Shown: positions 46,042 through 64,000, numbered from the stretch's first letter. The stretch is 64,000 bases of DNA from Clostridia bacterium (GCA_017450465.1 JAFSUW010000029.1:41572-105571), one strand, 5' to 3'. Program-made: numbers and translations. Notes: generated by a model from the letters alone, not told the origin.

Positions 46042-46755
46042 TTTATTCATATTTCCTGCTATCTTTTCTATTGCTTTTTTCTCAATGCGACTCACATAGG
46101 AACGCGAAATGTTAAGCATTTTTGCTATTTCATTTTGCGTTTTTTCACCTTTATCAGTAAGTCCATACCTAAGTGCAATAATTAGCTTTTCCCTATCAGT
46201 TAAAACATTCTCAATATCGTTATATAAGGCATTTGTATTAAGTTTTAAATTAACTTCTTCAAATGTTTCTTTTGCATCTGATTCTAAAATATCTATTAAG
46301 GATATCGAATTTCCTTCTTTATCGCTTCCTATTGGCTCATCTAGAGATATTTCGTTTTGCAGTTTCTTGCTACTCCTTAAATGCATCAAAATTTCGTTTT
46401 GAATGCATCTTGCAGCATATGTGGCAAATTTATGGCCCTTCATATAGTCAAAGGTTGTAACGGCTTTTATGAGCCCTATAGTGCCTATTGAAATTAAATC
46501 ATCATTATCTTTCCACGAAACAGAATATTTCTTCGCAATATGGACAACCAATCGCAAATTTCTTTCAATCAAAACATTTTTTGCGTCATTATCACCATTT
46601 TTGTATAATTCAAAATACATTTTCTCTTCGCTAGGCGTAAGTGGTTTTGGAAATGCATTCCCGCTACCACCTATAAAGCCAAACATAAATAATATGTTTT
46701 CAATTATGTATTTAATAATAGCAATAAATAACAAATATAGGCCCCCTTTTCGCAT
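46033..46755 (-). CDS. sigK: sporulation sigma factor SigK (pro-sigma-K); start codon uncertain
   Basis: Pro-sequence ...GGSGNAFPKPLTPSEEKMYFELYKNGD matches the SigK NAFPxPL processing region. Also has the sigma-70 regions 2 and 4 (ISRSYVSRIEKKA). The gene is not interrupted. Confidence 0.85.
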   Translation of the reverse strand: MRKGGLYLLFIAIIKYIIENILFMFGFIGGSGNAFPKPLTPSEEKMYFELYKNGDNDAKNVLIERNLRLVVHIAKKYSVSWKDNDDLISIGTIGLIKAVTTFDYMKGHKFATYAARCIQNEILMHLRSSKKLQNEISLDEPIGSDKEGNSISLIDILESDAKETFEEVNLKLNTNALYNDIENVLTDREKLIIALRYGLTDKGEKTQNEIAKMLNISRSYVSRIEKKAIEKIAGNMNKLK

Positions 46756-46812
46756 TAAAAAAGCAACTACACTATAATATGTAGTTGCCTTTATTTTTTT
46801 GCTTGTCAAAAA

Positions 46813-47609: not shown

Positions 47610-47639
47610 CAACAAAAAATCCACCATAGGTGGATTTTT
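47610..47639 (-). terminator. terminator at the end of the flagellar late operon
   Basis: aaaaatccaccataggtggattttt. Confidence 0.6.
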
Positions 47640-48123
47640 ATCTGTTTTTATCAAAATATACTGGATTTTGTAAATTGTTGTATCCGTAATTGGATACTAC
47701 CTTTTTACCTTTTTTTAAATCTTTTATTTTGCTTTCTACTGCATTCTTTTTTTTGCTTAAACTTTCGCTATTTTTTAACTCAATGTCATGTATCTGTTTT
47801 ACTTTTTTCATTATCATGTCTACGATATACTGAATTCTTTTTACTTCTTCAGTACATACATTAAGTTCCTTTAATTCTTTTATTCCATATACTACTTTTA
47901 TATCATCAACTATTTTCTCAAATTTGATGTCGAGTGCTTTTATACTATTTATTTCGATCTGCTTTTTATCGATAAAATCATTGAGTAATTCAATGTTTTC
48001 ATCATCTATTGCTGTAGTTTGTTCCTTAGTAAATTCATATATTTTTTCTAAAGAGCCATACTTTTCTTCGCTAAGACCGATTAGTGTTTCCATTACATTT
48101 TCTATTTCAAGCACTACTCTCAC
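47638..48123 (-). CDS. hypothetical flagellar-operon protein (FliT-like position, 161 aa)
   Basis: Immediately downstream of fliS on the same strand. Helical and charged, as FliT chaperones are. Homology was not verified. Confidence 0.4.
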   Translation of the reverse strand: MRVVLEIENVMETLIGLSEEKYGSLEKIYEFTKEQTTAIDDENIELLNDFIDKKQIEINSIKALDIKFEKIVDDIKVVYGIKELKELNVCTEEVKRIQYIVDMIMKKVKQIHDIELKNSESLSKKKNAVESKIKDLKKGKKVVSNYGYNNLQNPVYFDKNR

Positions 48124-48135
48124 CTCATTAGTTCA

Positions 48136-48552
48136 TTATACTCCAGCAGCATATCCTTGGTTTTCTCTTTGTGAATTTTCTATTCTTGCTTCTTTAATAG
48201 CTTTGCTCCAAGTATCTCTAATGTCTTCTACAAAATGTAGAATCTCTTCTAAGATGTCTCTATTTTTCTTAACATTTGCTTCAATTAATCTATCTAAGAA
48301 ATATGTATATAAATCATATAAGTTTTTAGCTATATCATATTTCATATCAAGTGTATTTCTAAGCTCTCTTACTATTGCCTCCGCTTTGCAAATGTAGAAG
48401 TTAGCTTTTTCATAGTCGTTTTCATCTATTGCTATTTGAGCAAACTTTATTCCTTTTATACAGCCATTATACAACATTAAAGTTAGTTCTTCTGGCGTTG
48501 CAGTAAGGACTGAATTTTGTTGATATTGGTAAACCGCTTTATTTAATGACAT
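48136..48552 (-). CDS. fliS: flagellar export chaperone FliS
   Basis: AVYQYQQNSVLTATPEELTLMLYNG is the FliS signature. Confidence 0.9.
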   Translation of the reverse strand: MSLNKAVYQYQQNSVLTATPEELTLMLYNGCIKGIKFAQIAIDENDYEKANFYICKAEAIVRELRNTLDMKYDIAKNLYDLYTYFLDRLIEANVKKNRDILEEILHFVEDIRDTWSKAIKEARIENSQRENQGYAAGV

Positions 48553-48575: not shown

Positions 48576-50756
48576 TTAGCTATCTAAACCTAACATACTG
48601 TTTATGTAAGAGCTTTGTGAATTTAATTTAGAAAGCGCATCCTCCATGGCTGCAAATTGTTTATAATATCTTTCTTCCAAAGTTGCTAGTCTATCTTGTT
48701 GCTTTGAAATATAGCTATTTAATCTAGACATCTTTTGACCTAACACACTATCATCAGTACCTGTTTTCGATGTACCAGCTTTTTGTTGTACTGCTTGCAT
48801 TGCTGTAGACATTACTGCATACATTCTATTTGCAAAACCAACTTTTGTACCATCATATGTTGCGCCATCATCAAGTCTTAATACTGATAATGCATCGCCA
48901 CCACTTGTACCAGTATTTACAGTAACTGTATTTTGTTTTGCAGAATTGATTACAAATCTGCCACTTGAAATAGATACTGTTACGTTGTTAGCACCAAAGT
49001 GTGTTGCAAGTTGTTCATTGATATATGATGTTAAATCACTTTGCCCTTCTGAAGTTGAGATATCATAGTTTTGGTTAAATGCAAGTGTATATGTATTACT
49101 ACCTACTGTAATATTCATTGATTTACCATTTAACGCTAATGTTGACTCTCCGCTAAGTGAAGTACCTGTTATATTTGTTGGTGTACTTGTAAAGAAATTA
49201 GCTACTCCATCGATATCATTATTTATTGCTTCTTTTAACTTATCTGAATCAACAATTAATTTACCATTGTTATTTCCATATGCACTATATGTAGTTGTTG
49301 AAATACCCATTTGGAATAATGAATTTATTCCTGTTGTATTCATAACTTGTTGTACTGCACTTCTCATATCGGAAATAGCACTTTGTAATGTTGAATCTCT
49401 TCTTAAGATACCGCTACGAGCCATCTTCTCCCATTTTTCTTGTTGGGTATCTGATAATTTTTCTCTTTCTGCATCTGTTAATGGTTCATAGTTTTTATTC
49501 TTTTCTTCGTTATATAATTCATTTAGTTTTCCCAATAAGTTGTTATATTTATCAACAAATCCCATTATAGAATTGTAAATTGCTTCTGTATCTTTAGCAA
49601 CTGTAATTGCAACTTCTGATTCAGGATCTGCCTTTAATACTGAAAACGCAACGCCTTGATATTCGAAGTTATTTGATGTCATTTGAACATCTTCTATAAC
49701 TCTTCCTTCTGGGTCAGTAATTGTTACTACTGCGTTTTGTCCCATTGTATACGTTCCGCCAGCTTCTTCTGTTAAACCTAAAGCAGCAAAGAAACCATGT
49801 TCATCGGAAATATCAATTTCACGGCCACTACCAGTATTATCTCTTTGCATTATGATAGAGTTTGCAATCTTATCATATTTCATGCTTATATCTATGTCTT
49901 CGTCGTCTGATAATGTTTTGAACACTTCTGATAAAGTTCTTTCACCGCTAAATTCAAATGTTTTACCATTGATTTTAACAGATATGTTTCCAGAAGCATC
50001 TAATGCTTCTTCACCTATTAAGTCTTTAACAGTTTTTCCTGTATTGAATATATTGTTAGCATTGTTTTCTAATTTTAATTTTGATAATGCGTCAGCACCT
50101 TCTTCACCAGAACCAACAACTATTGAATAATTCATGGCTGATTTACTAGAGATACTTACTTTTACCATTCTACCACTTGACATTGAGCTTACGTCAACAG
50201 CGATTTGCTCACCACCAAATGCGTTGTTTATTTTGTTACTGAGTAACTCTTCAAGTTTACCAGGAATTTCACTTGATGTCATTCCTCTAAAGTCGCCTTC
50301 ACCTTCACCAAATGAAATTGTCTTTGTTTCACCATTTAGTGTTATCTTCATACTTGTACCACTTAAATTTAAGTTTGTAGTTGTGGCCCAACCTGTACTT
50401 GTTATTGCTGTATCTCTTTGTGAACCAACTCTTGTTGTTGCTGAAGCAAGTTGCGAAGCTTTTAATCTATAAGTACCCTCGATAGCACTAGTTCCCGCAA
50501 CTGCACTAGCTATTAAAGAGTTTGAAGAATCAGCATTATATTTTTTATATGTCCCTTCTAATCGCATATCAAAAGCGGCATTTTGGAAAGCCAACATTTC
50601 TGAATTTAAATCAAGAAGTGTTTCTCTTTGCCAAGTTACCGTAGTTTTTTGCTTCTCAAATTTATCAAGTGGTGCACGTGCTGCACTCATCATTTCTTGA
50701 ATTAACGAGTCAGTGTCCATACCTGACATTAAAGACGTAATTCTTGTAGTTGCCAT
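48576..50756 (-). CDS. fliD: flagellar filament capping protein FliD
   Basis: 726 aa with the FliD N-terminal ITSLMSGMDTDSLIQ and C-terminal coiled coil. Confidence 0.9.
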   Translation of the reverse strand: MATTRITSLMSGMDTDSLIQEMMSAARAPLDKFEKQKTTVTWQRETLLDLNSEMLAFQNAAFDMRLEGTYKKYNADSSNSLIASAVAGTSAIEGTYRLKASQLASATTRVGSQRDTAITSTGWATTTNLNLSGTSMKITLNGETKTISFGEGEGDFRGMTSSEIPGKLEELLSNKINNAFGGEQIAVDVSSMSSGRMVKVSISSKSAMNYSIVVGSGEEGADALSKLKLENNANNIFNTGKTVKDLIGEEALDASGNISVKINGKTFEFSGERTLSEVFKTLSDDEDIDISMKYDKIANSIIMQRDNTGSGREIDISDEHGFFAALGLTEEAGGTYTMGQNAVVTITDPEGRVIEDVQMTSNNFEYQGVAFSVLKADPESEVAITVAKDTEAIYNSIMGFVDKYNNLLGKLNELYNEEKNKNYEPLTDAEREKLSDTQQEKWEKMARSGILRRDSTLQSAISDMRSAVQQVMNTTGINSLFQMGISTTTYSAYGNNNGKLIVDSDKLKEAINNDIDGVANFFTSTPTNITGTSLSGESTLALNGKSMNITVGSNTYTLAFNQNYDISTSEGQSDLTSYINEQLATHFGANNVTVSISSGRFVINSAKQNTVTVNTGTSGGDALSVLRLDDGATYDGTKVGFANRMYAVMSTAMQAVQQKAGTSKTGTDDSVLGQKMSRLNSYISKQQDRLATLEERYYKQFAAMEDALSKLNSQSSYINSMLGLDS

Positions 50757-51423: not shown

Positions 51424-52584
51424 TTATAGTCCTTGTAATAATTGTAATACTTGATTTGGTTGTTGATTTGCTTGTGCAAGCATTGCTGTAGCTGTTTGGT
51501 TAAGTATACTATCTTTTGTATATGTAACCATTTCAGCTGCCATATCAACATCACGAATACGTGATTCAGCAGCTGTTAAGTTTTCTTCACTCGCAGCTAA
51601 GGCATCTAAGGTATATTCCAACCTGTTCTGATAAGCACCAAGATCGCCTCTTGCGCTTGTTAATATATTTAACGCATTATCTATTGCATCTAGAGTATCA
51701 CATGCTTGATCTACGTCATCTATACTTAAATATGTAAGTCCAAGTGCAGCTGAACGCAAGTCTGGCATTTCTATTGTAAGAGCTCTATCTATTGAATTTG
51801 CACCAATTTGAAGGTTTGTCTTTCCTCCAGGTGATGTTTGTATCTTAAGTCCACTAATACTTGCAAGTGTCATATCCTTAAAGTTAAACTTAATACCAAC
51901 ATTTGAGCCATCTGCACCTTCAAACCTCATAAATCCAGAATATTTTGCATCTGTAATTGGGCCTGTTGTACTTGTTGCTGTATGTGTAGCTCCTTGTATT
52001 GAATAAGTAACTGTTACAACACCATCGCTATCTACACTAAAAGTATATTCTGTTTCATTCTCTGCGCCTGCAACATCTAATGTTTTTATTCCTTCAATTA
52101 AATCATATCCACCATCGGCATTTGCTTGATAAACAGTTGAATTAGCCTTGTCAGCTGACATTCCAAGTGTACCTTTTAATAAGTACGTACCATTAAATGA
52201 AGCTGTTTCTGCTATTCTATCAACCTCATCCCTAAGTTGTACTATCTCGGCTGTTATTGCTTCTTTTTCACCTGTTGATAGTATACCATTCATAGATTGA
52301 ACTGAAAGTTCTCTCATTCTTTGGAAAATATCACTAACTTGTTGTAATGCACCTTCTGCTGTTTGAATCATTGATATACCATCTTGTGCATTAAGCTGGG
52401 CCTTTTCCAAACCTCTTATCTGTGCTCTCATCTTTTCACTAATAGCAAGACCTGCAGCATCATCGCCTGCACTGTTAATTCTTAAGCCTGATGATAATTT
52501 CTCAAGTGAGCTTACTGTTCCTCTCTGGTTTACTACCAATTGATTTTGGGCATTAATTGCCGAAATGTTGTGATTAATCCTCAT
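51424..52584 (-). CDS. flagellin (386 aa, divergent paralog)
   Basis: MRINHNISAINAQNQL N-terminus and ...QPNQVLQLLQGL C-terminus. Confidence 0.95.
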   Translation of the reverse strand: MRINHNISAINAQNQLVVNQRGTVSSLEKLSSGLRINSAGDDAAGLAISEKMRAQIRGLEKAQLNAQDGISMIQTAEGALQQVSDIFQRMRELSVQSMNGILSTGEKEAITAEIVQLRDEVDRIAETASFNGTYLLKGTLGMSADKANSTVYQANADGGYDLIEGIKTLDVAGAENETEYTFSVDSDGVVTVTYSIQGATHTATSTTGPITDAKYSGFMRFEGADGSNVGIKFNFKDMTLASISGLKIQTSPGGKTNLQIGANSIDRALTIEMPDLRSAALGLTYLSIDDVDQACDTLDAIDNALNILTSARGDLGAYQNRLEYTLDALAASEENLTAAESRIRDVDMAAEMVTYTKDSILNQTATAMLAQANQQPNQVLQLLQGL

Positions 52585-52678
52585 GATTAATTCCTCCTTA
52601 TTTTTCTACCGTCTTGTCATTCCATGATCTTAAAGCTTTAAACATCCATAATAATGTCTTAAATCCTTTTCAAAAACA

Positions 52679-52705
52679 TTATCGTATTTTAGCGAAAATA
52701 CTTTA
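52679..52705 (-). promoter_or_regulatory. candidate sigma-D promoter for flagellin 51424..52584
   Basis: On the minus strand, TAAA-N15-TACGATAA. Confidence 0.4.
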
Positions 52706-52838
52706 TAGTTTTTTTAAACTTTTTTTGGTTTTTTAAAAAAAATATAGTGCATTTCCGCATAAACAGGGGGTTTTAATATTATTAATTTTTTTATTAAAAT
52801 ATTAACCCGCCTGTTTATACTTAAAAAGCACCATATAA

Positions 52839-53948
52839 TTATTGCAATAATGATAAAATTGTTTGAGGCTGCTGATTTGCTTGAGCAAGCATTGCCATAG
52901 CTGATTGGTTAAGTATACTATTCTTTGTATACGATACCATCTCACTAGCCATGTCTACATCACGAATACGTGATTCTGCATTGGTCAAGTTTTCATGTGT
53001 AGCCGTCAAGTTCTCAACTGCATACTCCATTCGATTCTGCATTGCTCCTAATACGGAACGTTGGGCCGATACTTTATCTATTGCATAATCGATTGCAATT
53101 AGAGTATTGTTGGCTTCTTCATTAGTTGCAATTGAAATAGTCATCTTTTCTGAGTTTGCTGATAAACCTGTAGAGCTCATATCATCAATACCAATAAATA
53201 ATAAATCTTCTTCATAAGTATTGGCACCAATTTTGAATACTGCTCTTTTGCCATCATCAGATTCAGTTTGTGTTGTAATAGTTGCGCCATTTAATTCTGA
53301 TGCAGCAATTGGAGTTTTACCAAGATTTATTTCAATTCCTGCGGATGCAAATCTGACAACTCCGCTTATTGTCTGACCTATAGTAAGTTCTTCTTTACCA
53401 TCTGTTCCCCAGGTGATTTTTGCCTTACCATCTGTCACCTCTATCGAATACGTTGTACCTTCTTCGGCATTTGATACACTAACTGAATACTTCTCATCTA
53501 CTGTGGTTGAATCCAGTTGTGTTGCAAGAGAACCATCTAGTATTTTCTTTGAGTTAAACGTACTAGATGTTGCAATTCTGTCTATCTCATCTCGAAGTGT
53601 TGCAAGTTCTGTCGAAACAGAAACTCGATCATCTTCTGTTAATACACCTGTATTTTGTGATTTAACTACTAGTTCTCTCATTCTCTGCAATATATCAGTA
53701 GTTTGTTGAAGAGCACCTTCTGCCGTTTGTATCATTGAGATACCATCTTGGGCATTGTTTTTAGCTTGTGCTAAACCTCTAATTTGTGCTCTCATCTTTT
53801 CACTGATTGCAAGTCCCGATGCGTCATCTGCCGCACTGTTAATTCTTAAACCTGACGATAGTTTCTTTATAGAACCCTCAACTCTTGATTGGTTCCCTGA
53901 TAATTTGTTTTGGGCATTAATAGCCATTATATTTGTATTTATTCTCAT
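52839..53948 (-). CDS. flagellin (369 aa)
   Basis: MRINTNIMAINAQNKL...[16 protein letters not shown]. Confidence 0.95.
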   Translation of the reverse strand: MRINTNIMAINAQNKLSGNQSRVEGSIKKLSSGLRINSAADDASGLAISEKMRAQIRGLAQAKNNAQDGISMIQTAEGALQQTTDILQRMRELVVKSQNTGVLTEDDRVSVSTELATLRDEIDRIATSSTFNSKKILDGSLATQLDSTTVDEKYSVSVSNAEEGTTYSIEVTDGKAKITWGTDGKEELTIGQTISGVVRFASAGIEINLGKTPIAASELNGATITTQTESDDGKRAVFKIGANTYEEDLLFIGIDDMSSTGLSANSEKMTISIATNEEANNTLIAIDYAIDKVSAQRSVLGAMQNRMEYAVENLTATHENLTNAESRIRDVDMASEMVSYTKNSILNQSAMAMLAQANQQPQTILSLLQ

Positions 53949-54115
53949 TTTACATTCCTCCTTGAATTTTTAAGAAAACCCTTCCGTGGGCTTCCTAGAG
54001 AGCTTTTTACCTCGGCCCTGAGTTTAACTCTCTAAAACCTTCATCGTCATTTTTTTTCATTACTTAACATTTATTTAAAAAATTTTTTAGAGAACAAGTT
54101 TATATTTAAAAATAA

Positions 54116-54143
54116 AAAGGAGGCCTAAGCCTCCTTTTTATTT
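54116..54143. terminator. terminator downstream of flagellin 54148..55254
   Basis: aaaaaggaggcctaagcctccttttt. Confidence 0.65.
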
Positions 54144-54147
54144 TTTA

Positions 54148-55254
54148 TTAACCAAGTAATGATAAGATTTGTTGTGGTTGTTGATTTGCTTGTGCAAGCA
54201 TTGCCATAGCTGATTGATTTAAGATGCTATTCTTTGTGTAAGTTACCATTTCAGCAGCCATGTCTACATCACGGATACGTGATTCAGCAGCTGTTAAGTT
54301 TTCACTTGTTGTTGATAAGTTTTCTACTGCGTATTCCATTCTGTTTTGAACAGCACCTAAACTTGCTCTTTGGCTTGATACTTTGTTGATTGCATTATCA
54401 AGATTTTTTAATGCTGCATCTGCATTTGCTGTTGTACTTATATCAATAGTTACACCTAATGCTGCTGATCTCATATCACCAATACCAACAAATAATTGGT
54501 CTTCGTCATATGTGTTAGCACCAATTTTAAATGCAGCTTTTTCTTTTCCACCTGCAGCAGATGCTGCTTTTGTTACTATATTTTTGCCGTTTATTGATGT
54601 TGCTGCAACATCAGTTGTACCAACATCAATTTCTATTCCAGCATTTGCAAATTTAATTACACCATTTATTGTTTGTGGTACAGCAACTTCTTCTGTTTTT
54701 GCAGTACCATCAGTCCAACTAAGCGTAATCTTACTTGATGTAGCTGCTATAGAATATGTAATTCCTTCTTTTGCGTTTGCTACATTTACTTTGCAATTAC
54801 TGCCAAGTGTTGTAGTGTTTAATTGTGTACCCATATCACCATTTAATAATTTCTTTGTATTAAATGTTGTTGAGTTTGCAATTCTATCTACTTCATCTTT
54901 TAATGCTGTTAATTCTGTTGTGATTGATGTTTGGTCATTTGATGTTAAAACACCAGTGTTTTGTGCCTTTACAACTAGTTCTCTCATTCTTTGAAGTATA
55001 TCTGTTGTTTGTTGTAATGCACCTTCTGCTGTTTGTAACATAGAAATACCATCTTGAGCATTACTTTGTGCTTGATTTAAGCCACGAATCTGTGATCTCA
55101 TCTTTTCACTTATAGCAAGGCCAGATGCATCATCTGCAGCTCCGTTAATTCTTAAACCTGATGATAATTTTTTGATTGATCCTTCTACTTTACCTTGATT
55201 ACCTGTTAATTTGTTTTGGGCATTTAATGCCATAATATTGGTATTAATTCTCAT
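54148..55254 (-). CDS. flagellin (368 aa)
   Basis: Conserved flagellin N- and C-termini. Confidence 0.95.
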   Translation of the reverse strand: MRINTNIMALNAQNKLTGNQGKVEGSIKKLSSGLRINGAADDASGLAISEKMRSQIRGLNQAQSNAQDGISMLQTAEGALQQTTDILQRMRELVVKAQNTGVLTSNDQTSITTELTALKDEVDRIANSTTFNTKKLLNGDMGTQLNTTTLGSNCKVNVANAKEGITYSIAATSSKITLSWTDGTAKTEEVAVPQTINGVIKFANAGIEIDVGTTDVAATSINGKNIVTKAASAAGGKEKAAFKIGANTYDEDQLFVGIGDMRSAALGVTIDISTTANADAALKNLDNAINKVSSQRASLGAVQNRMEYAVENLSTTSENLTAAESRIRDVDMAAEMVTYTKNSILNQSAMAMLAQANQQPQQILSLLG

Positions 55255-55311
55255 AATAATTCCTCCTTGAATTTATTAATTTCTTAACCTCCATGTAACC
55301 TTATCTCTTAA

Positions 55312-56136
55312 TTAGCTTAAGAGTGATAAAATTTGTTGTGGTTGTTGATTAGCTTGTGCAAGCATTGCCATAGCTGATTGATTTAAGATACTATTCTTTG
55401 TGTAGTTAACCATTTCAGCAGCCATATCTACGTCACGAATACGTGATTCAGCAGCTGTTAGGTTTTCCTTAGTTGTTGATAAGTTCTCAATTGCATATTC
55501 CATTCTATTTTGTACAGCACCAAGACTTGCTCTTTGGCTTGAAACTGTATTTATGGCAGTATCAATATTGGTTAAAGCAGCATTTGTGTTTGTTGCATTA
55601 CTAATATTGATTGTTACGCCTAAATCAGATGATTTCATAGAAGCAATATTTACTGTAATTGAGTCAACTGTATCTGTATTTGCACCTATTTTAAATGTTG
55701 CACCATTTGTTGCTAAACTACCATCTAACAATTTTTTGGTATTAAAAGTTGTTGAATTAGCGATTCTATCAATTTCACTGTTTAGTGCTGTTAATTCTGT
55801 CGTTATTGATGTTTTATCGTTATCTGTTAAAACACCAGAGTTTTGTGCTTTTACAACTAGTTCTCTCATTCTTTGAAGAATGTCTGTTGTTTGTTGTAAT
55901 GCACCTTCTGCTGTTTGGATCATTGATATACCATCTTGGGCATTGCTTTGTGCTTGACCAAGACCACGAATCTGTGCTCTCATCTTTTCACTTATAGCAA
56001 GACCAGATGCATCGTCAGATGCACTGTTAATTCTTAAACCAGATGATAATTTCTTAATTGATCCTTCAACTTTACCTTGGTTACCGGTTAATTTGTTTTG
56101 AGCATTTAATGCCATAATATTGGTATTTATTCTCAT
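55312..56136 (-). CDS. flagellin (274 aa)
   Basis: Conserved flagellin N- and C-termini with a short central domain. Confidence 0.95.
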   Translation of the reverse strand: MRINTNIMALNAQNKLTGNQGKVEGSIKKLSSGLRINSASDDASGLAISEKMRAQIRGLGQAQSNAQDGISMIQTAEGALQQTTDILQRMRELVVKAQNSGVLTDNDKTSITTELTALNSEIDRIANSTTFNTKKLLDGSLATNGATFKIGANTDTVDSITVNIASMKSSDLGVTINISNATNTNAALTNIDTAINTVSSQRASLGAVQNRMEYAIENLSTTKENLTAAESRIRDVDMAAEMVNYTKNSILNQSAMAMLAQANQQPQQILSLLS

Positions 56137-56198
56137 TTTACATTCCTCCTTGAACTATAAACATCTTCCCTGACTTATTAAAGTCATGAGCCTATATT

Positions 56199-57023
56199 CT
56201 AACCTAATAGTGAAAGTATTTGTTCAGGTTGTTTATTTGATTGTGCAAGCATTGCCATAGCAGTTTGATTTAATATACTATTCTTTGTATAGTTAACCAT
56301 TTCAGCAGCCATATCTACGTCACGAATACGTGATTCAGCAGCTGTTAAGTTTTCTTGTGTTGTAGATATGTTTTCAATAGCATATTCCATCCTGTTTTGG
56401 ACAGCACCAAGATTTGCTCTTTGGCTTGAAACTGTATTAATAGCAGCATCAAGTTTTGTTAGAGCTTCATTAGTCTTAGCGGCAGTCGAAATATCAGTAG
56501 ATATATTAAGTGCTGATGAAGTCATCGCATTAATATTTACTGTTATTGAATCAACCGCATCTGTGTTTGCACCAATTTTAAATGTTGCACCAGTACTTGC
56601 TAAATCACCGTTTAGCAACTTTTTGGTGTTAAATGTTGTTGAATTAGCGATTCTATCAACTTCACTGTTTAGAGCTGTAAGCTCTGTAGTGATTGATGTT
56701 TTATCGCTATCCGTAAGAACACCTGAATTTTGTGCTTTAACTACTAGTTCTCTCATCCTTTGTAAAATATCAGTCGTTTGCTGAAGTGCACCCTCTGCTG
56801 TTTGAATCATTGATATACCATCTTGGGCATTACTTCCAGCTTGGGCAAGTCCTCTAATCTGAGCTCTCATCTTTTCACTTATAGCAAGACCAGATGCATC
56901 ATCAGATGCAGTATTGATCCTTAAGCCAGATGATAATTTCTTGATAGAAGACTCAACGTGACCATTATTTTTACTAAGCATATTCCTAGCATTTAAGGCC
57001 ATAACATTGGTATTAATCCTCAT
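56199..57023 (-). CDS. flagellin (274 aa from MRINTN)
   Basis: Start moved two codons in, to MRINTNVMALNARNML, which has an RBS. Confidence 0.9.
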   Translation of the reverse strand: MRINTNVMALNARNMLSKNNGHVESSIKKLSSGLRINTASDDASGLAISEKMRAQIRGLAQAGSNAQDGISMIQTAEGALQQTTDILQRMRELVVKAQNSGVLTDSDKTSITTELTALNSEVDRIANSTTFNTKKLLNGDLASTGATFKIGANTDAVDSITVNINAMTSSALNISTDISTAAKTNEALTKLDAAINTVSSQRANLGAVQNRMEYAIENISTTQENLTAAESRIRDVDMAAEMVNYTKNSILNQTAMAMLAQSNKQPEQILSLLG

Positions 57024-57064
57024 ATACATTCACCCTCTTCCTTGAAGGATTATGTATGAGGCTC

Positions 57065-57112
57065 AATATTCTTTTGGTTTAATTTTTAATGTGGCTCACA
57101 ATATTGAGCCCC
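57065..57112. terminator. hairpin terminator between flagellin genes
   Basis: gaggctcaatattc...gaatattgagcc inverted repeat. Confidence 0.5.
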
Positions 57113-57126
57113 ATACGACCTACTTA

Positions 57127-57960
57127 TTACCTAAGTAATGATAAAATTGCTTGTGGTTGTTGATTAGCTTGTGCAAGCATTGCCATAGCTGATTGATTTA
57201 AGATACTATTCTTTGTGTAACTTACCATTTCGCTAGCCATATCTACATCACGAATACGTGATTCAGCAGCTGTTAAGTTTTCACTTGTTGTTGATAAGTT
57301 TTCTACTGCATATTCCATTCTGTTTTGAACAGCACCAAGTTTTGCTCTTTGACTTGAAACTGTATTAATAGCAGCATCAAGTTTTGTTAAAGCTGTGCTT
57401 GCTCCACCAGCTGTTGTAATATCTAACGCATTAATTTGAAGACTTGTTGCATCCATAGCACCTATTGTAACTTTAATTGAGTCAACTGCGTCTGTGTTTG
57501 CACCAATTTTAAATACTGCTGCATCAGCAGCGTCTTCTAAGTCACCATTTAATAATTTCTTGGTGTTAAATGTTGTTGAAGAAGCAATTCTATCAACTTC
57601 ATTTTTTAATGCTGTTAACTCTGTTGTAATAGATGATTGGTCTTGGCTTGTTAACACACCAGTATTTTGTGCTTTTACAACTAGTTCTCTCATTCTTTGA
57701 AGAATGTCTGTTGTTTGTTGTAATGCACCTTCTGCTGTTTGAATCATTGATATACCATCTTGAGCATTACTTTGTGCTTGATTTAAGCCACGGATCTGTG
57801 ATCTCATCTTTTCACTTATAGCGAGGCCTGATGCATCATCAGCAGCTCCATTAATTCTTAAACCTGATGATAATTTCTTGATTGATCCTTCAACTTTACC
57901 TTGGTTACCTGTTAACTTATTTTGGGCATTTAATGCCATAATGTTTGTATTAATTCTCAT
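57127..57960 (-). CDS. flagellin (277 aa)
   Basis: Conserved flagellin termini. Confidence 0.95.
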   Translation of the reverse strand: MRINTNIMALNAQNKLTGNQGKVEGSIKKLSSGLRINGAADDASGLAISEKMRSQIRGLNQAQSNAQDGISMIQTAEGALQQTTDILQRMRELVVKAQNTGVLTSQDQSSITTELTALKNEVDRIASSTTFNTKKLLNGDLEDAADAAVFKIGANTDAVDSIKVTIGAMDATSLQINALDITTAGGASTALTKLDAAINTVSSQRAKLGAVQNRMEYAVENLSTTSENLTAAESRIRDVDMASEMVSYTKNSILNQSAMAMLAQANQQPQAILSLLR

Positions 57961-58016
57961 AATAATTCCTCCTTGAATTTTTTTTAATAATTTTTCTTCC
58001 TTGATCTAACAAATTA

Positions 58017-58457
58017 CTATTCTAGCAATTTTAGTATCTGTTCGGGTTTTTTATTTGCTTGGGCTAATATCGCACTCTTTGAATGGTTAATCATACGACT
58101 CTTGGTCTCATTTACCACTTCTTCAGCCATATTAACATCACGAATACGAGATTTAGATGCATTGATGTTTTCAGCAACAATATCATCTTCTCCTTTTATA
58201 GCTACTTCCTTAGATTCGAATAAACCTTCCATATCAGCTAATACTTCATTAGCTTTTGAGTATACTACTTCTGGTTCTTGGCGTTTATCGATTTCCCTCA
58301 TTTGTTCATGCATTTTCTCGTTAACACGAGGATCTACATTTTTCTTGTTTTCGCTTATTTTAAGTCCAGAATTTCTCTCTTCACGAGATTCATCTGGTTT
58401 TCTTGACGCTATGTTTTGAAGACTAAGCGCAGCTACATTATCTATTCTCATATTCAA
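58017..58457 (-). CDS. mini-flagellin-like protein (146 aa; flagellin D0 N- and C-terminal segments only, charged linker)
   Basis: MNMRIDNVAALSLQNIA... at the N-terminus and ...SRIRDVNMAEEVVNETKSRMINHSKSAILAQANKKPEQILKLLE at the C-terminus. Confidence 0.7.
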   Translation of the reverse strand: MNMRIDNVAALSLQNIASRKPDESREERNSGLKISENKKNVDPRVNEKMHEQMREIDKRQEPEVVYSKANEVLADMEGLFESKEVAIKGEDDIVAENINASKSRIRDVNMAEEVVNETKSRMINHSKSAILAQANKKPEQILKLLE

Positions 58458-58504
58458 TCCCCTCCTCCCTGAAACAATAAATTCCTTTTATTTTTTTTAC
58501 TCAT

Positions 58505-58530
58505 GTAGTAGGCGAGTAAATCGCCCCTAC
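58505..58530. repeat. GC-rich hairpin (GTAGTAGGCG...CGCCCCTACA family)
   Basis: gtagtaggcgagtaaatcgcccctacaa. Confidence 0.5.
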
Positions 58531-58532
58531 AA

Positions 58533-59357
58533 TTAGCTTAAGAGTGATAAAATTTGTTGTGGTTGTTGATTAGCTTGAGCAAGCATTGCCATAGCTGATT
58601 GATTTAAGATGCTATTCTTTGTGTATGTAACCATCTCAGCAGCCATATCTACGTCACGAATACGTGATTCAGCAGCTGTTAAGTTTTCACTTGTTGTTGA
58701 TAAGTTCTCGATAGCATATTCCATTCTGTTTTGTACTGCACCAAGTTTTGCTCTTTGACTTGATACTGTATTGATTGCTGTGTCAAGGTTTGTTAAAGCA
58801 TCATCTGCAGCTGTCTTTATATTGATTGTAATACCTAAAGCAGCAGATCTCATGTCACCAATTGTGATTGAGATTGAGTCAACTGCGTCTGTATTAGCAC
58901 CAATTTTAAATGTTGCTGCATTTGCTGCTAACTTCAAATCACCATTTAATAGTTTCTTTGTGTTGAATGTTGTAGAACTTGCGATTCTATCAACTTCATC
59001 TTTTAATGCTGTTAATTCTGTTACTATTGAGTCTTGGTCATTTGTTGTTAAAACACCAGTATTTTGTGCTTTTACAACTAGTTCTCTCATTCTTTGAAGA
59101 ATGTCTGTTGTTTGTTGTAATGCACCTTCTGCTGTTTGGATCATTGATATACCATCTTGAGCATTACTTTGTGCTTGGTTAAGTCCACGAATCTGTGATC
59201 TCATCTTTTCGCTTATAGCGAGGCCTGATGCATCGTCAGAAGCTCCGTTAATTCTTAAACCTGATGATAATTTCTTGATTGATCCTTCTACTTTACCTTG
59301 ATTACCTGTTAATTTGTTTTGGGCATTTAATGCCATAATGTTTGTGTTAATTCTCAT
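58533..59357 (-). CDS. flagellin (274 aa)
   Basis: Conserved flagellin termini. Confidence 0.95.
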   Translation of the reverse strand: MRINTNIMALNAQNKLTGNQGKVEGSIKKLSSGLRINGASDDASGLAISEKMRSQIRGLNQAQSNAQDGISMIQTAEGALQQTTDILQRMRELVVKAQNTGVLTTNDQDSIVTELTALKDEVDRIASSTTFNTKKLLNGDLKLAANAATFKIGANTDAVDSISITIGDMRSAALGITINIKTAADDALTNLDTAINTVSSQRAKLGAVQNRMEYAIENLSTTSENLTAAESRIRDVDMAAEMVTYTKNSILNQSAMAMLAQANQQPQQILSLLS

Positions 59358-59751
59358 AATTATTCCTCCTTGAATATTTTTTTCTTCTTATAATAAGAAG
59401 AGTTCCTTAAGAAGATAAATCCTTTTACCTTCTCTTTACTAATTTACTTAGTACCATCCTCCTTTAGGTGAATGATTTTCTTCCGTGAATTTAGGTGTCA
59501 TTAAAATATTTTTGACTTATTATGTCCCGACCAATTCTTTTGGAAGTGACTAATCTACTTCGCCGTATCATAAATTAATCATTTATGTAATTTTTACAAC
59601 GCTAAAGTTAAAGCCGTATAACCTTATTATTGTAAAAAAATTACCAAAACTTTTTAAACCTTAAATAGAACAGTAAATTTAGTTTGTAGTTCTAGATATT
59701 AGTTATAAGAGTAGCCCCCTCACTAATATCTAGAAATACATTTACTGCTTA

Positions 59752-60576
59752 CTATCTAAGTAATGACAAAATTTGTTGTGGTTGTTGATTAGCTTGTGCT
59801 AACATTGCCATAGCTGATTGATTTAATATGCTATTCTTTGTGTAACTTACCATCTCAGCAGCCATATCTACGTCACGAATACGTGATTCAGCAGCTGTTA
59901 AGTTTTCACTTGTTGTTGATAAGTTTTCAATTGCATATTCCATTCTATTTTGTACTGCACCAAGTTTAGCTCTTTGGCTTGATACTGTGTTTATTGCATT
60001 ATCTAAGTTTGTTAAAGCTGTACTTGCTGCACTTGCAGTTGTAATATCAGTTGTTACTCCTAAAGCTGTTGATGTCATTGTACCTATTGTTACTGTTATT
60101 GAGTCAACTGTATCTGTATTTGCACCAATCTTAAATGTTGCACCATTTGTTTTTAAATCACCATTTAATAATTTCTTTGTATTAAAGGTTGTTGAAGAAG
60201 CAATTCTATCAACTTCATCTTTTAATGCTGTTAACTCAGTTGTGATTGATGATTGGTCTTGTGCTGTTAAAACACCAGTATTTTGTGCTTTTACAACTAG
60301 TTCTCTCATTCTTTGAAGAATGTCAGTTGTTTGTTGTAATGCACCTTCTGCTGTTTGTATCATTGAGATACCATCTTGTGCGTTACTTTGTGCTTGGTTA
60401 AGTCCACGAATCTGTGATCTCATCTTTTCACTGATTGCAAGGCCTGATGCATCATCAGCAGCTCCATTAATTCTTAAACCTGATGATAATTTTTTGATTG
60501 ATCCTTCAACTTTTCCTTGGTTTCCTGTTAATTTGTTTTGTGCGTTTAATGCCATAATGTTTGTGTTAATTCTCAT
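59752..60576 (-). CDS. flagellin (274 aa)
   Basis: Conserved flagellin termini. Confidence 0.95.
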   Translation of the reverse strand: MRINTNIMALNAQNKLTGNQGKVEGSIKKLSSGLRINGAADDASGLAISEKMRSQIRGLNQAQSNAQDGISMIQTAEGALQQTTDILQRMRELVVKAQNTGVLTAQDQSSITTELTALKDEVDRIASSTTFNTKKLLNGDLKTNGATFKIGANTDTVDSITVTIGTMTSTALGVTTDITTASAASTALTNLDNAINTVSSQRAKLGAVQNRMEYAIENLSTTSENLTAAESRIRDVDMAAEMVSYTKNSILNQSAMAMLAQANQQPQQILSLLR

Positions 60577-60626
60577 AATACATTCCTCCTTGAATTTTTT
60601 TGTATAAAGTAAATCCCTTTACTTTT

Positions 60627-60762
60627 ACTTATTATGTAATTTTTATGACGCTATACTTTTAAATCCAGTACACCCATAAAATTATTACGTTTTTACTTAT
60701 TATGTAACCTTTGGGGTGTTATACTTTTAAATCTAGTACGCCCATAAAATTATTACCTTTTT
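60627..60762. repeat. 2 x 68-bp tandem direct repeat in a flagellin intergenic region
   Basis: acttattatgtaatttttatgacgctatacttttaaatccagtacacccataaaattattacgttttt, then a ~85%-identical second copy. Confidence 0.7.
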
Positions 60763-60794
60763 TTAAATTCAACAAATAAATCTCTTAAATTTTT

Positions 60795-60829
60795 TTGTAG
60801 TAGGCGGACTTATAGTCCGCCACTACATT
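60795..60829. repeat. GC-rich hairpin (TGTAGTAGGCGG family)
   Basis: tgtagtaggcggacttatagtccgccactacatta. Confidence 0.55.
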
Positions 60830-60876
60830 AACGGCTATTTCAATTACTTTTTGTGGGTAAAGAAATCCCTACATTA

Positions 60877-61701
60877 TTAGCTTAAGAGTGATAAAATTTG
60901 TTGTGGTTGTTGATTAGCTTGTGCAAGCATTGCCATAGCTGATTGATTTAATATGCTATTCTTTGTATAACTTACCATTTCGCTAGCCATATCTACATCA
61001 CGAATACGTGATTCAGCAGCTGTTAAGTTTTCACTTGTTGTTGATAAGTTTTCAATTGCATATTCCATTCTGTTTTGTACTGCACCAAGTTTAGCTCTTT
61101 GTGTTGATACTCTATTAATAGCAGTATCTAAGTTTGTTAAAGCTGTTTTTGCATTTTCTGCTGTTGTGATATCAATTGTTACACCTAAATCTGCTGATTT
61201 CATTGAACCAATTGTTACAGTTATTGAGTCAACAGCATCTGTGTTAGCACCAATTTTAAATGTAGCTCCGTTTGTTCCAAGATTTCCATTTAATAATTTC
61301 TTGGTGTTAAATGTTGTTGATTCTGCTATTCTGTCGATTTCATCTTTTAGTGATGTTAACTCTGTTGTGATTGAAGCTTGGTCTTGGCTTGTTAACACAC
61401 CTGTGTTTTCTGCTTTTACAACTAGTTCTCTCATTCTTTGAAGAATGTCTGTTGTTTGTTGTAATGCACCTTCAGCTGTTTGGATCATTGATATACCATC
61501 TTGTGCGTTACTTTGTGCTTGATTTAATCCTCTTATCTGTGCTCTCATTTTTTCACTGATAGCAAGACCAGATGCATCATCTGCTGCACCATTGATTCTT
61601 AAACCTGATGATAATTTCTTGATTGATCCTTCTACTTTACCTTGGTTACCTGTTAATTTGTTTTGAGCATTTAATGCCATAATGTTTGTGTTAATTCTCA
61701 T
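60877..61701 (-). CDS. flagellin (274 aa)
   Basis: Conserved flagellin termini. Confidence 0.95.
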   Translation of the reverse strand: MRINTNIMALNAQNKLTGNQGKVEGSIKKLSSGLRINGAADDASGLAISEKMRAQIRGLNQAQSNAQDGISMIQTAEGALQQTTDILQRMRELVVKAENTGVLTSQDQASITTELTSLKDEIDRIAESTTFNTKKLLNGNLGTNGATFKIGANTDAVDSITVTIGSMKSADLGVTIDITTAENAKTALTNLDTAINRVSTQRAKLGAVQNRMEYAIENLSTTSENLTAAESRIRDVDMASEMVSYTKNSILNQSAMAMLAQANQQPQQILSLLS

Positions 61702-61810
61702 AATAAATTCCTCCTTGAATTTTTTGTTTTTACATCCTTGTGTTTCTATGTAATTTTTATAGCATCATATACTTAGCCGTTAGTATAAATACTATAAAAT
61801 AATTACCAAC

Positions 61811-61838
61811 ACTTGTAGGCGAAGTTTCCTTCGCCTTA
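61811..61838. repeat. GC-rich hairpin (TGTAGGCG family)
   Basis: ttgtaggcgaagtttccttcgccttaag. Confidence 0.5.
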
Positions 61839-61848
61839 AGTCTTGTTA

Positions 61849-62682
61849 TTAGCTAAGTAATGATAAAATTGCTTGTGGTTGTTGATTTGCTTGTGCAAGC
61901 ATTGCCATAGCTGATTGATTAAGTATGCTATTCTTTGTGTAACTTACCATTTCTTGAGCCATATCTACATCACGGATACGTGATTCAGCAGCTGTTAAGT
62001 TTTCGCTTGTTGTTGATAAGTTTTCAATTGCATATTCCATTCTGTTTTGTACAGCACCAAGTTTTGCTCTTTGTGTTGATACTGCATTGATTGCAGCGTC
62101 AAGTTTTGTTAATGCTGTACTTGCTCCAGATGCTGTTGTAATGTCTAAGTTATTAACTTGAAGACTTGTAGCATCCATAGCACCTATTGTTACTGTTAAT
62201 GTATCTACTGTTTCTGTATTAGCACCAATTTTGAATTTTGCAGCATCTGCTGCATCTTCTAAGTCACCATTTAATAATTTCTTTGTATTAAATGTTGTTG
62301 AACTTGCGATTCTATCGATTTCACTTTTTAATGCTGTTAACTCAGTTGTAATAGATGTTTGGTCTTGGCTTGTTAACACACCTGTGTTTTCAGCTTTTAC
62401 AACTAGTTCTCTCATTCTTTGTAATATATCTGTTGTCTGTTGTAACGCGCCTTCTGCTGTTTGAATCATTGATATACCATCTTGTGCGTTACTTTGTGCT
62501 TGGTTTAAGCCCCTTATCTGTGCTCTCATTTTTTCACTTATTGCGAGTCCTGATGCGTCATCTGCTGCACCATTGATTCTTAAACCTGAAGACAATTTCT
62601 TAATTGATCCTTCTACCTTATTTTGGTTACCTGTTAATTTGTTTTGGGCATTTAATGCCATGATGTTTGTGTTAATTCTCAT
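61849..62682 (-). CDS. flagellin (277 aa)
   Basis: Conserved flagellin termini. Confidence 0.95.
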   Translation of the reverse strand: MRINTNIMALNAQNKLTGNQNKVEGSIKKLSSGLRINGAADDASGLAISEKMRAQIRGLNQAQSNAQDGISMIQTAEGALQQTTDILQRMRELVVKAENTGVLTSQDQTSITTELTALKSEIDRIASSTTFNTKKLLNGDLEDAADAAKFKIGANTETVDTLTVTIGAMDATSLQVNNLDITTASGASTALTKLDAAINAVSTQRAKLGAVQNRMEYAIENLSTTSENLTAAESRIRDVDMAQEMVSYTKNSILNQSAMAMLAQANQQPQAILSLLS

Positions 62683-62892
62683 TTTACATTCCTCCTTGAA
62701 TTTTTTGATAGGAAAAGCACATCCTTATACTTTTCTTTATCTTTTGTAGACTTTTTACTATATTTCTTTGCCGTGTCAAAATATAGTGCTTCTTTATAGT
62801 ATCTAAAGTCCTAAAATACTATAAAGCTAAGTAATATTTACTTAGTGAAAACAATTAAAACATTTTAATTGCTTTCATTAAGTAAATGTTAC

Positions 62893-62928
62893 TGTAGGGG
62901 GCGATATTAGTCGCCCTCTACAAAACAT
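62893..62928. repeat. GC-rich hairpin (CTGTAGGGGGCG...CGCCCTCTACA)
   Basis: actgtagggggcgatattagtcgccctctacaaaac. Confidence 0.6.
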
Positions 62929-62936
62929 TTAGGCAA

Positions 62937-63770
62937 TTATCTAAGTAATGATAAAATTTGTTGTGGTTGTTGGTTAGCTTGTGCAAGCATTGCCATAGCT
63001 GATTGATTAAGTATGCTATTCTTTGTGTAACTTACCATTTCTTGTGCCATATCTACATCACGGATACGTGATTCAGCAGCTGTTAAGTTTTCACTTGTTG
63101 TTGATAAGTTTTCTACTGCATATTCCATTCTATTTTGTACTGCACCAAGTTTTGCTCTTTGTGTTGATACACTATTAATAGCAGTATCTAATGCTGTTAA
63201 TGCAGCACTTGCTCCTTCTGCTGTTGTTATGTTTAAGTTATGAATTTGAAGTGTTGTTGCATCCATAGCACCTATTGTTACTGACAAAGTATCTACTGTT
63301 TCTGTATTTGCACCAATCTTAAATTTAGCAGCATTTTCATCAGTTCCTAAACTACCATTTAATAGTTTCTTTGTATTGAATGTTGTTGAAGAAGCAATTC
63401 TATCTACTTCATCTTTTAATGAACTTAACTCAGTTGTAATAGATGCTTGGTCTTGTGCTGTTAACACACCTGTGTTTTCTGCTTTTACAACTAGTTCTCT
63501 CATTCTTTGTAAAATATCTGTTGTTTGTTGTAATGCACCTTCTGCTGTTTGGATCATTGATATACCATCTTGTGCGTTACTTCTTGCTTGGTTTAATCCT
63601 CTTATCTGTGCTCTCATTTTTTCACTTATTGCTAAGCCAGATGCGTCATCAGATGCACCATTAATTCTTAAACCTGATGATAATTTCTTAATTGATCCTT
63701 CTACTTTACCTTGATTACCTGTTAATTTGTTTTGGGCATTTAATGCCATGATGTTTGTGTTAATTCTCAT
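62937..63770 (-). CDS. flagellin (277 aa)
   Basis: Conserved flagellin termini. Confidence 0.95.
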   Translation of the reverse strand: MRINTNIMALNAQNKLTGNQGKVEGSIKKLSSGLRINGASDDASGLAISEKMRAQIRGLNQARSNAQDGISMIQTAEGALQQTTDILQRMRELVVKAENTGVLTAQDQASITTELSSLKDEVDRIASSTTFNTKKLLNGSLGTDENAAKFKIGANTETVDTLSVTIGAMDATTLQIHNLNITTAEGASAALTALDTAINSVSTQRAKLGAVQNRMEYAVENLSTTSENLTAAESRIRDVDMAQEMVSYTKNSILNQSAMAMLAQANQQPQQILSLLR

Positions 63771-63888
63771 AATAAATTCCTCCTTGAATTTTTAATTTTT
63801 TAGTACTTCCATGTACTTTTTTTCTATTGTTTTATAATTTTTTATACGACTAATAAACAGTTAGAATTTTTAATCATTCTACTGTGAA

Positions 63889-64000
63889 TTAGCTAAGTAA
63901 TGATAGAATTGCTTGTGGTTGTTGATTTGCTTGTGCAAGCATTGCCATAGCTGATTGATTAAGTATGCTATTCTTTGTGTAACTTACCATTTCAGCAGCC
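63889..64000 (-). CDS. flagellin, C-terminal end only (gene continues past the window end)
   Basis: ttagctaagtaatgatagaattgcttgtggttgttgatttgcttgtgcaagcattgccatagc matches the conserved flagellin 3' coding end. Confidence 0.85.

Follow-up and report, generated by a model that had tools for sequence, protein, structure and literature searches.

Why would a single bacterium line up 13 flagellin genes and a mini-flagellin gene in one place, and are the copies working filament subunits or cassettes from which an expressed gene is rewritten? We addressed this question in a 64,000-nucleotide (nt) stretch of DNA from an uncultured Clostridia bacterium (GCA_017450465.1 JAFSUW010000029.1:41572-105571), referred to here as the window. 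From position 51424 to the end of the window, the minus strand carries flagellin genes arranged head-to-tail, directly upstream of flaG, fliD, fliS and an flgN-like gene. An earlier reading made from the sequence alone had offered two interpretations, the shuffling of antigenic cassettes by gene conversion or recombination and a multi-flagellin filament. The multi-flagellin family was found to be the better fit, and antigenic cassette shuffling was not supported as stated. The locus holds several intact and selectively maintained paralogs in one genome; they carry both flagellin Pfam domains, resemble solved filament subunits over their full length, and are associated with flaG, fliD, fliS and FlgN genes. 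We therefore think it probable that the array is a tandemly amplified family of functional flagellins, shaped by unequal duplication, divergence, and sporadic gene conversion.

Among the dominant targets of host immunity, both innate (TLR5) and adaptive, are the flagellins of gut Clostridia. The array, in which 13 intact paralogs fall into two structural classes and are joined by a conserved mini-flagellin, is an extreme natural case in which to ask whether copy number serves dosage, filament mechanics, or surface variation, whether gene conversion shapes the flagellar surface in a gut population, and what role a flagellin stripped to its termini plays. Around half of all flagellated bacteria have several flagellin genes, for reasons that are largely unknown (PMC6299084).

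Content of the array

The complete flagellin genes of the window were labeled F1 to F11, the mini gene M, and the partial copy F12; F13 lies beyond the window. The genes are listed below with their lengths in amino acids (aa) and, for F1 to F3, the open reading frame (ORF) and Pfam evidence.

51424..52584, minus strand: F1, 386 aa, divergent D2-like insert, last gene of the array; ORF, Pfam Flagellin_N and Flagellin_C
52839..53948, minus strand: F2, 369 aa, D2-like insert; ORF, Pfam
54148..55254, minus strand: F3, 368 aa, D2-like insert, mosaic; ORF, Pfam
55312..56136, minus strand: F4, 274 aa, predicted D0/D1-only
56199..57023, minus strand: F5, 274 aa, predicted D0/D1-only; the mechanical ORF begins two codons earlier, at another ATG, and has 276 aa
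57127..57960, minus strand: F6, 277 aa, predicted D0/D1-only
58017..58457, minus strand: M, mini-flagellin, 144 aa (ATG 58451) or 146 aa (TTG 58457)
58533..59357, minus strand: F7, 274 aa, predicted D0/D1-only; 394-nt upstream region
59752..60576, minus strand: F8, 274 aa, predicted D0/D1-only
60877..61701, minus strand: F9, 274 aa, predicted D0/D1-only; two patches variable between samples
61849..62682, minus strand: F10, 277 aa, predicted D0/D1-only; three patches variable between samples
62937..63770, minus strand: F11, 277 aa, predicted D0/D1-only; one patch variable between samples
63889..64000, minus strand: F12, 3' end only; the full gene encodes 275 aa on contig L081
50794..51174, minus strand: flaG, Pfam FlaG
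48576-50756, minus strand: fliD, filament cap, Pfam
48136-48552, minus strand: fliS, export chaperone, Pfam
47638-48123, minus strand: FlgN-family gene, export chaperone, Pfam

Eleven complete flagellin genes (five of 274 aa, three of 277, and one each of 368, 369, and 386), the mini-flagellin, and the 3' end of F12 are thus present in the window. The sequence-only reading was right in its total of at least 13 copies but over-counted by one in reporting twelve complete genes, six of them of 274 aa. The placement directly upstream of flaG-fliD-fliS was borne out by ORFs and Pfam matches. When the whole window was searched by tblastn with N- and C-terminal F8 probes, 11 N-termini and 13 C-termini were found, all within the array, and no flagellin terminus of either kind was detected in the rest of the window. 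In a repeat search, 300-nt units at 66-91% identity were recovered 11 times and a 3' 124-mer 13 times. The likeness of the 3' ends at the DNA level also held, as a 48-mer quoted earlier from this region occurs nine times with no more than three mismatches, against 0 occurrences expected by chance. Pfam scans of F1, F2, F3, and F8 gave 144-157 bits for Flagellin_N (PF00669, cut-off 26.6) and 93-104 bits for Flagellin_C (PF00700, cut-off 23), and both domains are present in the precomputed gene calls of the remaining full copies. All full copies and the mini gene have a start codon and the same strong Shine-Dalgarno sequence, ttcaAGGAGGaat, and none is truncated. The F8 protein is identical to MBQ7668894.1, annotated "MAG: flagellin [Clostridia bacterium]" (MAG, metagenome-assembled genome) and encoded on a 331-kb contig; an exact-sequence look-up with F11 gave no match.

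The F8 protein was also found on contigs of four other samples labeled XIEF21-1, which, judging from the label only, is probably a ruminant gastrointestinal metagenome study. One 179-kb contig from another sample, L081, matches the window over 14,249 nt at 99.87% identity without gaps and carries the complete array: F13 (274 aa), F12 (275 aa), and F11 to F1 in the order seen in the window, with M between F7 and F6. The whole locus consists of 13 full flagellin genes and one mini gene. Its upstream neighbor is a gyrA/parC-like gene in divergent orientation, and flaG-fliD follow on the downstream side. Parts of the array are also present on three more contigs (L082-L084), at 98.0-99.7% identity. 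Because independent assemblies agree on order and sequence, we rejected the possibility that the array is an assembly artifact. A FliD-anchored scan of GTDB species genomes revealed no close relative, the best FliD match being 42% identical.

Two structural classes can be distinguished among the full copies. Across the whole locus, the ten proteins of 274-277 aa share 77-93% of their residues with one another. Identity to these ten is 79-88% for F3 and 69-75% for F2, and F1 is the most divergent copy, at 52-61% to the others. At the DNA level the paralogs are 74-89% identical, with F1 and F2 at 60-72%. Residues 1-273 of F8 align to residues 1-275 of 6t17_A, a solved flagellin of 276 aa (E=3e-80), and the short copies also align end to end with Bacillus subtilis Hag (304 aa, PDB 5wjt). 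We take both of these flagellins to consist of D0 and D1 only. Because the ten short copies align end to end with them, they are predicted to be D0/D1-only flagellins that lack D2 and D3. Only F1-F3 carry a D2-like insert, which is about 95-110 aa long and placed after "KKLLNG...", and residues 2-368 of F3 align end to end with Vibrio flagellins of 376-379 aa. The inserts of F2 and F3 are 45% identical, whereas that of F1 is only 19-24% identical to either. The most variable part of the short copies, codons ~136-195 (the central ~60 codons), is homologous and alignable, with 48-77% aa identity per 15-codon window. The proposal that central D2/D3 regions differ completely between copies was thus not upheld, since ten copies have no such regions, their central linker can be aligned, and only F1-F3 have inserts.

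Age of the copies and exchange between them

Synonymous divergence (dS) and the dN/dS ratio (omega) were compared by region as medians over the 45 pairs of the ten short paralogs. The N-terminal 135 codons gave a dS of 0.65 and an omega of 0.09, the central segment 0.92 and 0.29, and the C-terminal 77 codons 0.40 and 0.15. None of the 45 pairs exceeded an omega of 1 in the central region, nor did any pair in any region in this region-level test. Thus, at the level of regions, the exposed central linker is under relaxed constraint and not under diversifying selection. Synonymous-codon identity is ~0.6-0.7 over most of the gene and rises to 0.8-0.9 in codons 211-270. Since dS lies at 0.4-0.9 and synonymous identity at ~0.6-0.7, the paralogs are old, diverged duplicates. 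Their termini were described earlier as near-identical, which holds for the proteins but not for the DNA (74-89% identity), where only the last ~60 codons stand above the general level of synonymous identity. The conservation of the termini is due mainly to purifying selection, as is to be expected of the helices of the filament core. Either added homogenization by gene conversion or constraints at the nucleotide level would fit the low dS at the 3' end.

Duplicates of this kind could also be mostly redundant, with one or two copies making the filament and the rest being neutral by-products on their way to loss. In several bacteria with multiple flagellins, motility requires a single copy only, as seen with hag compared with yvzB in B. 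subtilis (PMC8929632) and with flaA in Vibrio cholerae (PMC12607845). We consider this explanation very unlikely for the present array: all 13 copies are intact despite a dS of 0.4-0.9, omega is 0.09-0.29, arrays are kept in several related species, and even M holds its frame and length across orthologs of 82-99% identity with an omega of 0.27.

Several tests pointed to exchange between the copies. The PHI test within the array gave p=0.0015. A GENECONV-like permutation test found one globally significant tract, shared by F11 and F12, in which nt 27-243 are identical across 86 consecutive polymorphic sites; several further tracts were significant only pairwise. Comparison of the window with L081 shows 18 differences in 14,249 nt, all of them inside flagellin coding sequence and 17 grouped in three clusters. 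At each cluster, the alternative allele in L081 is identical to another paralog: to F12 in F11 (nt 560-645), to F11 in F10 (nt 650-730), and to F6 in F9 (nt 730-755). On L083, the first ~200 nt of F9 (nt 15-235) and F10 (nt 50-245) are replaced by F11-identical sequence, and on L084 a patch of F10 (nt 700-735) equals F12. A donor without mismatches was found in the array for all six inter-sample patches that contain multiple single-nucleotide polymorphisms. It is mostly the conserved N- and C-terminal parts, and not the exposed segment, that contain exchange tracts.

F3 shows a similar history within one gene. Over its first 140 aa it shares 96% identity with the short paralogs F6, F7, and F8, and its C-terminus is 85% identical to short paralogs, while the nearest relatives of its insert are that of F2 (45%) and long flagellins from other species (28-39%). 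In a related species, long and short forms are likewise most alike at the N-terminus. This pattern of termini versus insert appears to be concerted evolution of the termini. The Campylobacter paralogs flaA and flaB are known to exchange segments. As in that pair and in the fla genes of Alteromonadales, paralogous flagellins here seem to exchange segments that homogenize parts of the gene; those systems have two to a few near-identical copies, whereas the present one has 13 copies at 74-89% DNA identity and local tracts only. Flagellin is among the genes with long-lasting, recurrent concerted evolution (PMC6053082). Taken together, the sequence comparisons support segmental exchange between copies that would be sporadic, overlaid on old duplicates, and partly confounded by short-read assembly.

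These signals raise the question of whether the array is a system of programmed antigenic variation, in which a few expressed genes are rewritten by segmental conversion in the manner of pilE/pilS or vlsE. The inter-sample patches are exact copies of other paralogs, the PHI test is positive, F3 is a mosaic, and the termini, including the 48-mer found in nine copies, provide homology for recombination. The array also resembles Neisseria pilE/pilS and Borrelia vlsE in having many tandem related sequences with conserved flanks able to guide conversion. Those systems combine one expression site with promoterless, truncated donors and show very high turnover within populations. In contrast, every copy of the present array is a complete gene, and the locus hardly varies from sample to sample. 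Donor cassettes that lack a promoter or are cut short were not found, every copy being full length with a start codon and Shine-Dalgarno sequence, and most copies are without any D2/D3 "cassette" to exchange. The tracts fall mostly in the conserved termini instead of the variable exposed segment, central omega is ~0.3 with no pair above 1, and the paralogs are old (dS up to 0.9). Only 18 differences in 14,249 nt separate two independent assemblies, and turnover is therefore slow. In addition, the patches could be explained by assembly chimeras. The conversion and shuffling proposed by the sequence-only reading is thus supported as far as signals of exchange go, but the silent-cassette architecture is absent, and we regard programmed antigenic variation as very improbable.

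Expression signals and use of the copies

SigmaD-like motifs of the TAAA-N15-GCCGATAT type, scored as TAAA-N15-(G/T)(C/A)CGATA(A/T), were found at several positions. F1 is preceded by TAAA-N15-TACGATAA at 52705-52679 and F2 by a weak motif at 54067-54041; flaG has two motifs (51362-51335 and 51259-51232), and another lies upstream of F13. The matches are good except at F2, and all are at the motif level only. A sigma-70 promoter scan was uninformative, with 42 sites against 55 expected. The gaps upstream of F3, F4, and F6 are too short for a promoter, as these genes start 56-62 nt after the preceding gene (57 nt between F4 and F3). No hairpin was found before F3 or F6 (that is, after F4 and M, in gaps of 56-57 nt), and only a weak one before F4. 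Because of these short gaps and the lack or weakness of hairpins, F3, F4, and F6 are probably co-transcribed with the gene upstream of each.

Eight of the 13 genes (F1, F3, F6, F7, F8, F9, F10, and F11) have a downstream hairpin of -13 kcal/mol or stronger, but a U-tract accompanies only those of F1 and F3. F1 has a strong terminator with its U-tract at 51417-51383, the only one caught by a strict terminator scan, and a canonical terminator lies downstream of F3. The earlier statement that most copies have a hairpin terminator of their own needs correction to this extent. A separate palindrome is located in the F11-F10 intergenic region (62830-62893), with a 31-nt arm, 90% complementarity, and a 2-nt spacer; it is distinct from the GC-rich hairpin directly 3' of F11.

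Another element, an AT-rich hairpin of the form GGTAAT(T/A)ATTTT...TAAAAATTACATA, recurs upstream of F7, F8 (duplicated), F9, and F12.

59582-59649: AT-rich hairpin before F7
60623-60758: AT-rich hairpin, two tandem 68-nt copies before F8
about 61745-61810: AT-rich hairpin before F9
L081, about 5580-5640: AT-rich hairpin before F12

It has a 14-bp stem with compensatory change in three pairs among the five copies, and ACGGCnAAGTAGAT comes after it in F7 and F12. Such an element might act as an RNA structure in the leader, as a 5' stabilizer, or as a site for protein binding. An Rfam search over the array found no known RNA family, the AT-rich hairpin included.

The leaders (window 52585-63888; L081 4016-5860) are also rich in CsrA-type motifs. 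With the pattern [AC]A[ACG]GGA[ATG], 30 motifs were counted in 14 leaders, compared to 4.6 +/- 2.1 in shuffled sequences. The motif coincides with the Shine-Dalgarno sequence in 13 of the 14, and 10 leaders have at least one further motif upstream, in forms such as CACGGAA, CAAGGAT, and CAAGGAG. Sites of this kind recall the B. subtilis hag leader. The resemblance to CsrA-FliW-flagellin control is at the level of motifs only, and such control would be a prediction here. Neither csrA nor fliW is in the window or was seen beside the array on L081, a result that does not extend to the remainder of the genome.

The heterogeneity of the upstream regions could indicate that the copies are alternatives to one another, switched or differentially expressed so that a cell uses only one flagellin, or a small number of them, at any time to build its filaments. 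The choice would be matched to viscosity, host immunity, or flagellotropic phage, and each block would be controlled independently through its own upstream region and hairpins. The regions vary from 56 to 394 nt in the window and carry different motifs: sigmaD-like sites occur only at F1, F2 (weak), and F13, and the AT-rich hairpin only before F7, F8, F9, and F12. The hairpins after 8 of 13 genes and the two structural classes, with and without D2, fit this explanation as well, and in Candidatus (Ca.) Epulopiscium nine flagellins are unequally expressed (PMC10756260). However, no switch was found, neither invertible repeats nor a recombinase in the array, and the short gaps without terminators (F5-F4-F3 and M-F6) favor polycistronic expression. 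Alternative use is a genuine possibility, which we hold to be the less likely one.

A phase-variation switch by site-specific recombination was tried as a candidate and rejected, as it requires invertible repeats or a recombinase. The array contains no inverted repeats resembling an invertible promoter, only hairpins, and no recombinase gene; all coding-strand ORFs of at least 80 aa in it belong to the flagellin family.

The amplified family of functional flagellins that we favor would work as follows. Repeated unequal duplication would build the array, and occasional gene conversion between copies would reshape it, most clearly in the last ~60 codons and in local tracts. The products would be ten D0/D1-only subunits, three subunits with a D2-like surface domain, and one conserved mini-flagellin. 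The terminal D0/D1 helices would be conserved because they are needed for export, FliS binding, and packing of the filament core, and export and polymerization of the copies into a filament are predicted. Most copies would be expressed in several transcription units, with transcription starting from sigmaD-type promoters at F13, F1, and flaG and probably running through the gaps of 56-62 nt, and translation would be controlled through the CsrA-like GGA sites in the leaders. The copies could then enter the filament together or by turns, which would give a high dosage and a surface that varies between copies and strains.

A number of points weigh against this explanation. Motif scans found no recognizable sigmaD or sigma70 promoter upstream of F7-F12, and some copies could be silent. 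The low C-terminal dS could come from codon or mRNA constraints instead of conversion. Short-read path switching between paralogs yields the same pattern of patches, so that chimeras could mimic conversion; all compared sequences are from short-read metagenome assemblies, and L083 and L084 are short contigs. The identical F11/F12 tract could in principle be a collapsed repeat.

The mini-flagellin and comparison with other arrays

M most likely starts at ATG 58451 and encodes 144 aa, as in the L081 gene calls. It matches Flagellin_C only in Pfam (39.9 bits), but its N-terminus, MRIDNVAALSLQN, is still flagellin-like, and the ~50 residues at the C-terminus, SKSRIRDVNMAEEVV...AILAQANKKPEQILKLLE, are retained. 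Its middle is charged and most of D1 is missing. Six orthologs (82-99% identity) are all 144-146 residues long, with indels in frame. Against the ortholog on contig L089, where synteny is conserved, dN/dS is 0.27 for M and 0.11-0.14 for the flanking flagellins. With its length and frame conserved across orthologs and this dN/dS, M is a maintained gene and not debris. A profile search of 1.84 billion representative proteins returned very few full-length relatives, indicating a narrow family; the other matches covered only the generic flagellin C-terminus. An AlphaFold2 model from a 7-sequence alignment was of low confidence (pLDDT 65, pTM 0.29), with only the C-terminal helix 88-132 confident.

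One of the relatives returned by the profile search, a protein of 222 aa from another organism (P0129), has the N- and C-terminal signatures of M together with remnants of D1. This suggests that M may derive from an old, progressively reduced flagellin-like lineage and not from a recent deletion. That M is a fresh deletion remnant of a neighboring gene was rejected given its 29-37% identity to the other copies, its conserved length, and the 222-aa relative.

The C-terminal segment of full flagellins is the region bound by FliS and FliW. M retains this segment as well as an N-terminus that resembles an export signal. A role of M as a chaperone or regulator decoy, or as an assembly modulator, is speculation. 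In a bolder form, M would be a dedicated regulator or decoy that titrates chaperones or terminates or seeds assembly, while ongoing conversion gives strain-specific mosaic filament surfaces; we find this combination doubtful. If true, M would coordinate the output of a 13-gene flagellin battery, and the ongoing conversion would make the array of this gut commensal the flagellar counterpart of gene families that generate diversity, though with no silent cassettes. M is like the non-filament flagellin homologs YvzB of B. subtilis and FlaC of Campylobacter in that it is a reduced homolog and probably no normal filament subunit (PMC8929632; PMC4863622). M differs from them in lying inside an array, in belonging to a narrow family, and in keeping both termini with most of D1 gone; at 144 aa it is also much shorter than FlaC.

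Eighty FliD-anchored loci were taken from reference genomes, and 67 of these loci had a flagellin match. Flagellins near fliD usually numbered one or two in these 67 loci, with a maximum of six in Paenibacillus sp. S-38 (L076). A related rumen organism has a seven-gene array (L085, 9117-16101) of 278, 277, 280, mini 154, 380, 278, and 378 aa, in which a separate mini-flagellin of 154 aa, of an N+C fusion type, stands in the middle. The context of this array differs, as it is found between rapZ and rpoD/dnaG. On contig L087, from another sample, the protein that is second in L085 comes first in the array next to rapZ, which suggests copy loss, conversion, or misassembly. At least five tandem long flagellins run off the end of contig L090 (7562-13154), and L091 (6867-11147) has the same gyrA-like anchor followed by an array inside which the contig ends. 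Because related contigs end inside arrays, MAG catalogs probably under-count flagellin copies, short-read assemblies breaking or scrambling such arrays.

The highest bacterial paralog counts as of a 2020 review are 14 flagellins in MO-1 and 15 in Magnetococcus marinus MC-1, and all 14 of MO-1 are expressed and present in the filament (PMC7175107). Those bacteria are marine and magnetotactic with sheathed, bundled, and glycosylated flagella (PMC7175107), whereas the array described here is from a ruminant-gut Clostridia MAG. As in the present locus, their 14-15 paralogs lie mostly in one tandem array, a count that matches our 13 + 1, and no insertion sequence elements or flanking duplications explain the amplification. 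They have a separate single fliC with flaG/fliD/fliS, whereas in the present locus flaG-fliD-fliS directly adjoin the entire array, in which D0/D1-only subunits predominate and a mini-flagellin is present. MC-1 and MO-1 are also Gram-negative.

Closer to our locus in class and gut habitat are the multi-flagellin loci of Epulopiscium, Roseburia/Lachnospiraceae, and "... cellulosolvens". Of the nine flagellins of Ca. Epulopiscium viviparus, which are unequally expressed, seven lie side by side in an operon (PMC10756260). Most flagellated gut Clostridia encode several flagellins, and 518 flagellin genes were found in 163 gut Clostridia genomes, one of which had 11 (bioRxiv 10.1101/2025.07.18.665615). 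The earlier statement that few genomes carry more than 5-6 flagellins is broadly right, although published cases reach 14-15, and 11 in Clostridia. Both multi-flagellin tandem arrays and flagellin gene conversion are already described. The count of this array is near the highest on record, and 13 + 1 in one array exceeds any Clostridia case that we found. The most original part of the locus is M, which, along with the possible ongoing conversion between strains, is worth follow-up.

The rest of the window contains several other features. Two genes on the minus strand (24659-28186 and 28399-34410) encode giant surface proteins of 1175 and 2003 aa with Flg_new/InlB B-repeats, Ig-like/PKD domains, and dockerin type I, as well as SLH in the 2003-aa protein. 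They are of cellulosome type, consistent with a fiber-degrading rumen organism. A sigma-70-family gene with Pfam regions 2 and 4 only (46033-46809, minus strand) lies two genes downstream of the flagellar genes; its N-terminal hydrophobic extension seems similar to the pro-sequence found in sigma-E and sigma-K, the factors of sporulation, and it is not obviously FliA. The dockerin proteins, SpoIIR, and this sigma factor fit a spore-forming, fiber-associated member of the Clostridia. A gene for a TraG/VirD4-like type IV secretion coupling protein (35526-37412) adjoins a tRNA (34537-34610), and the two may mark the edge of an integrated conjugative element. Finally, a ribosomal protein L10 leader (Rfam RF00557, 75 bits), which is an ordinary feature, was found at 20046-20166 directly upstream of a 182-aa ORF (19497-20045).

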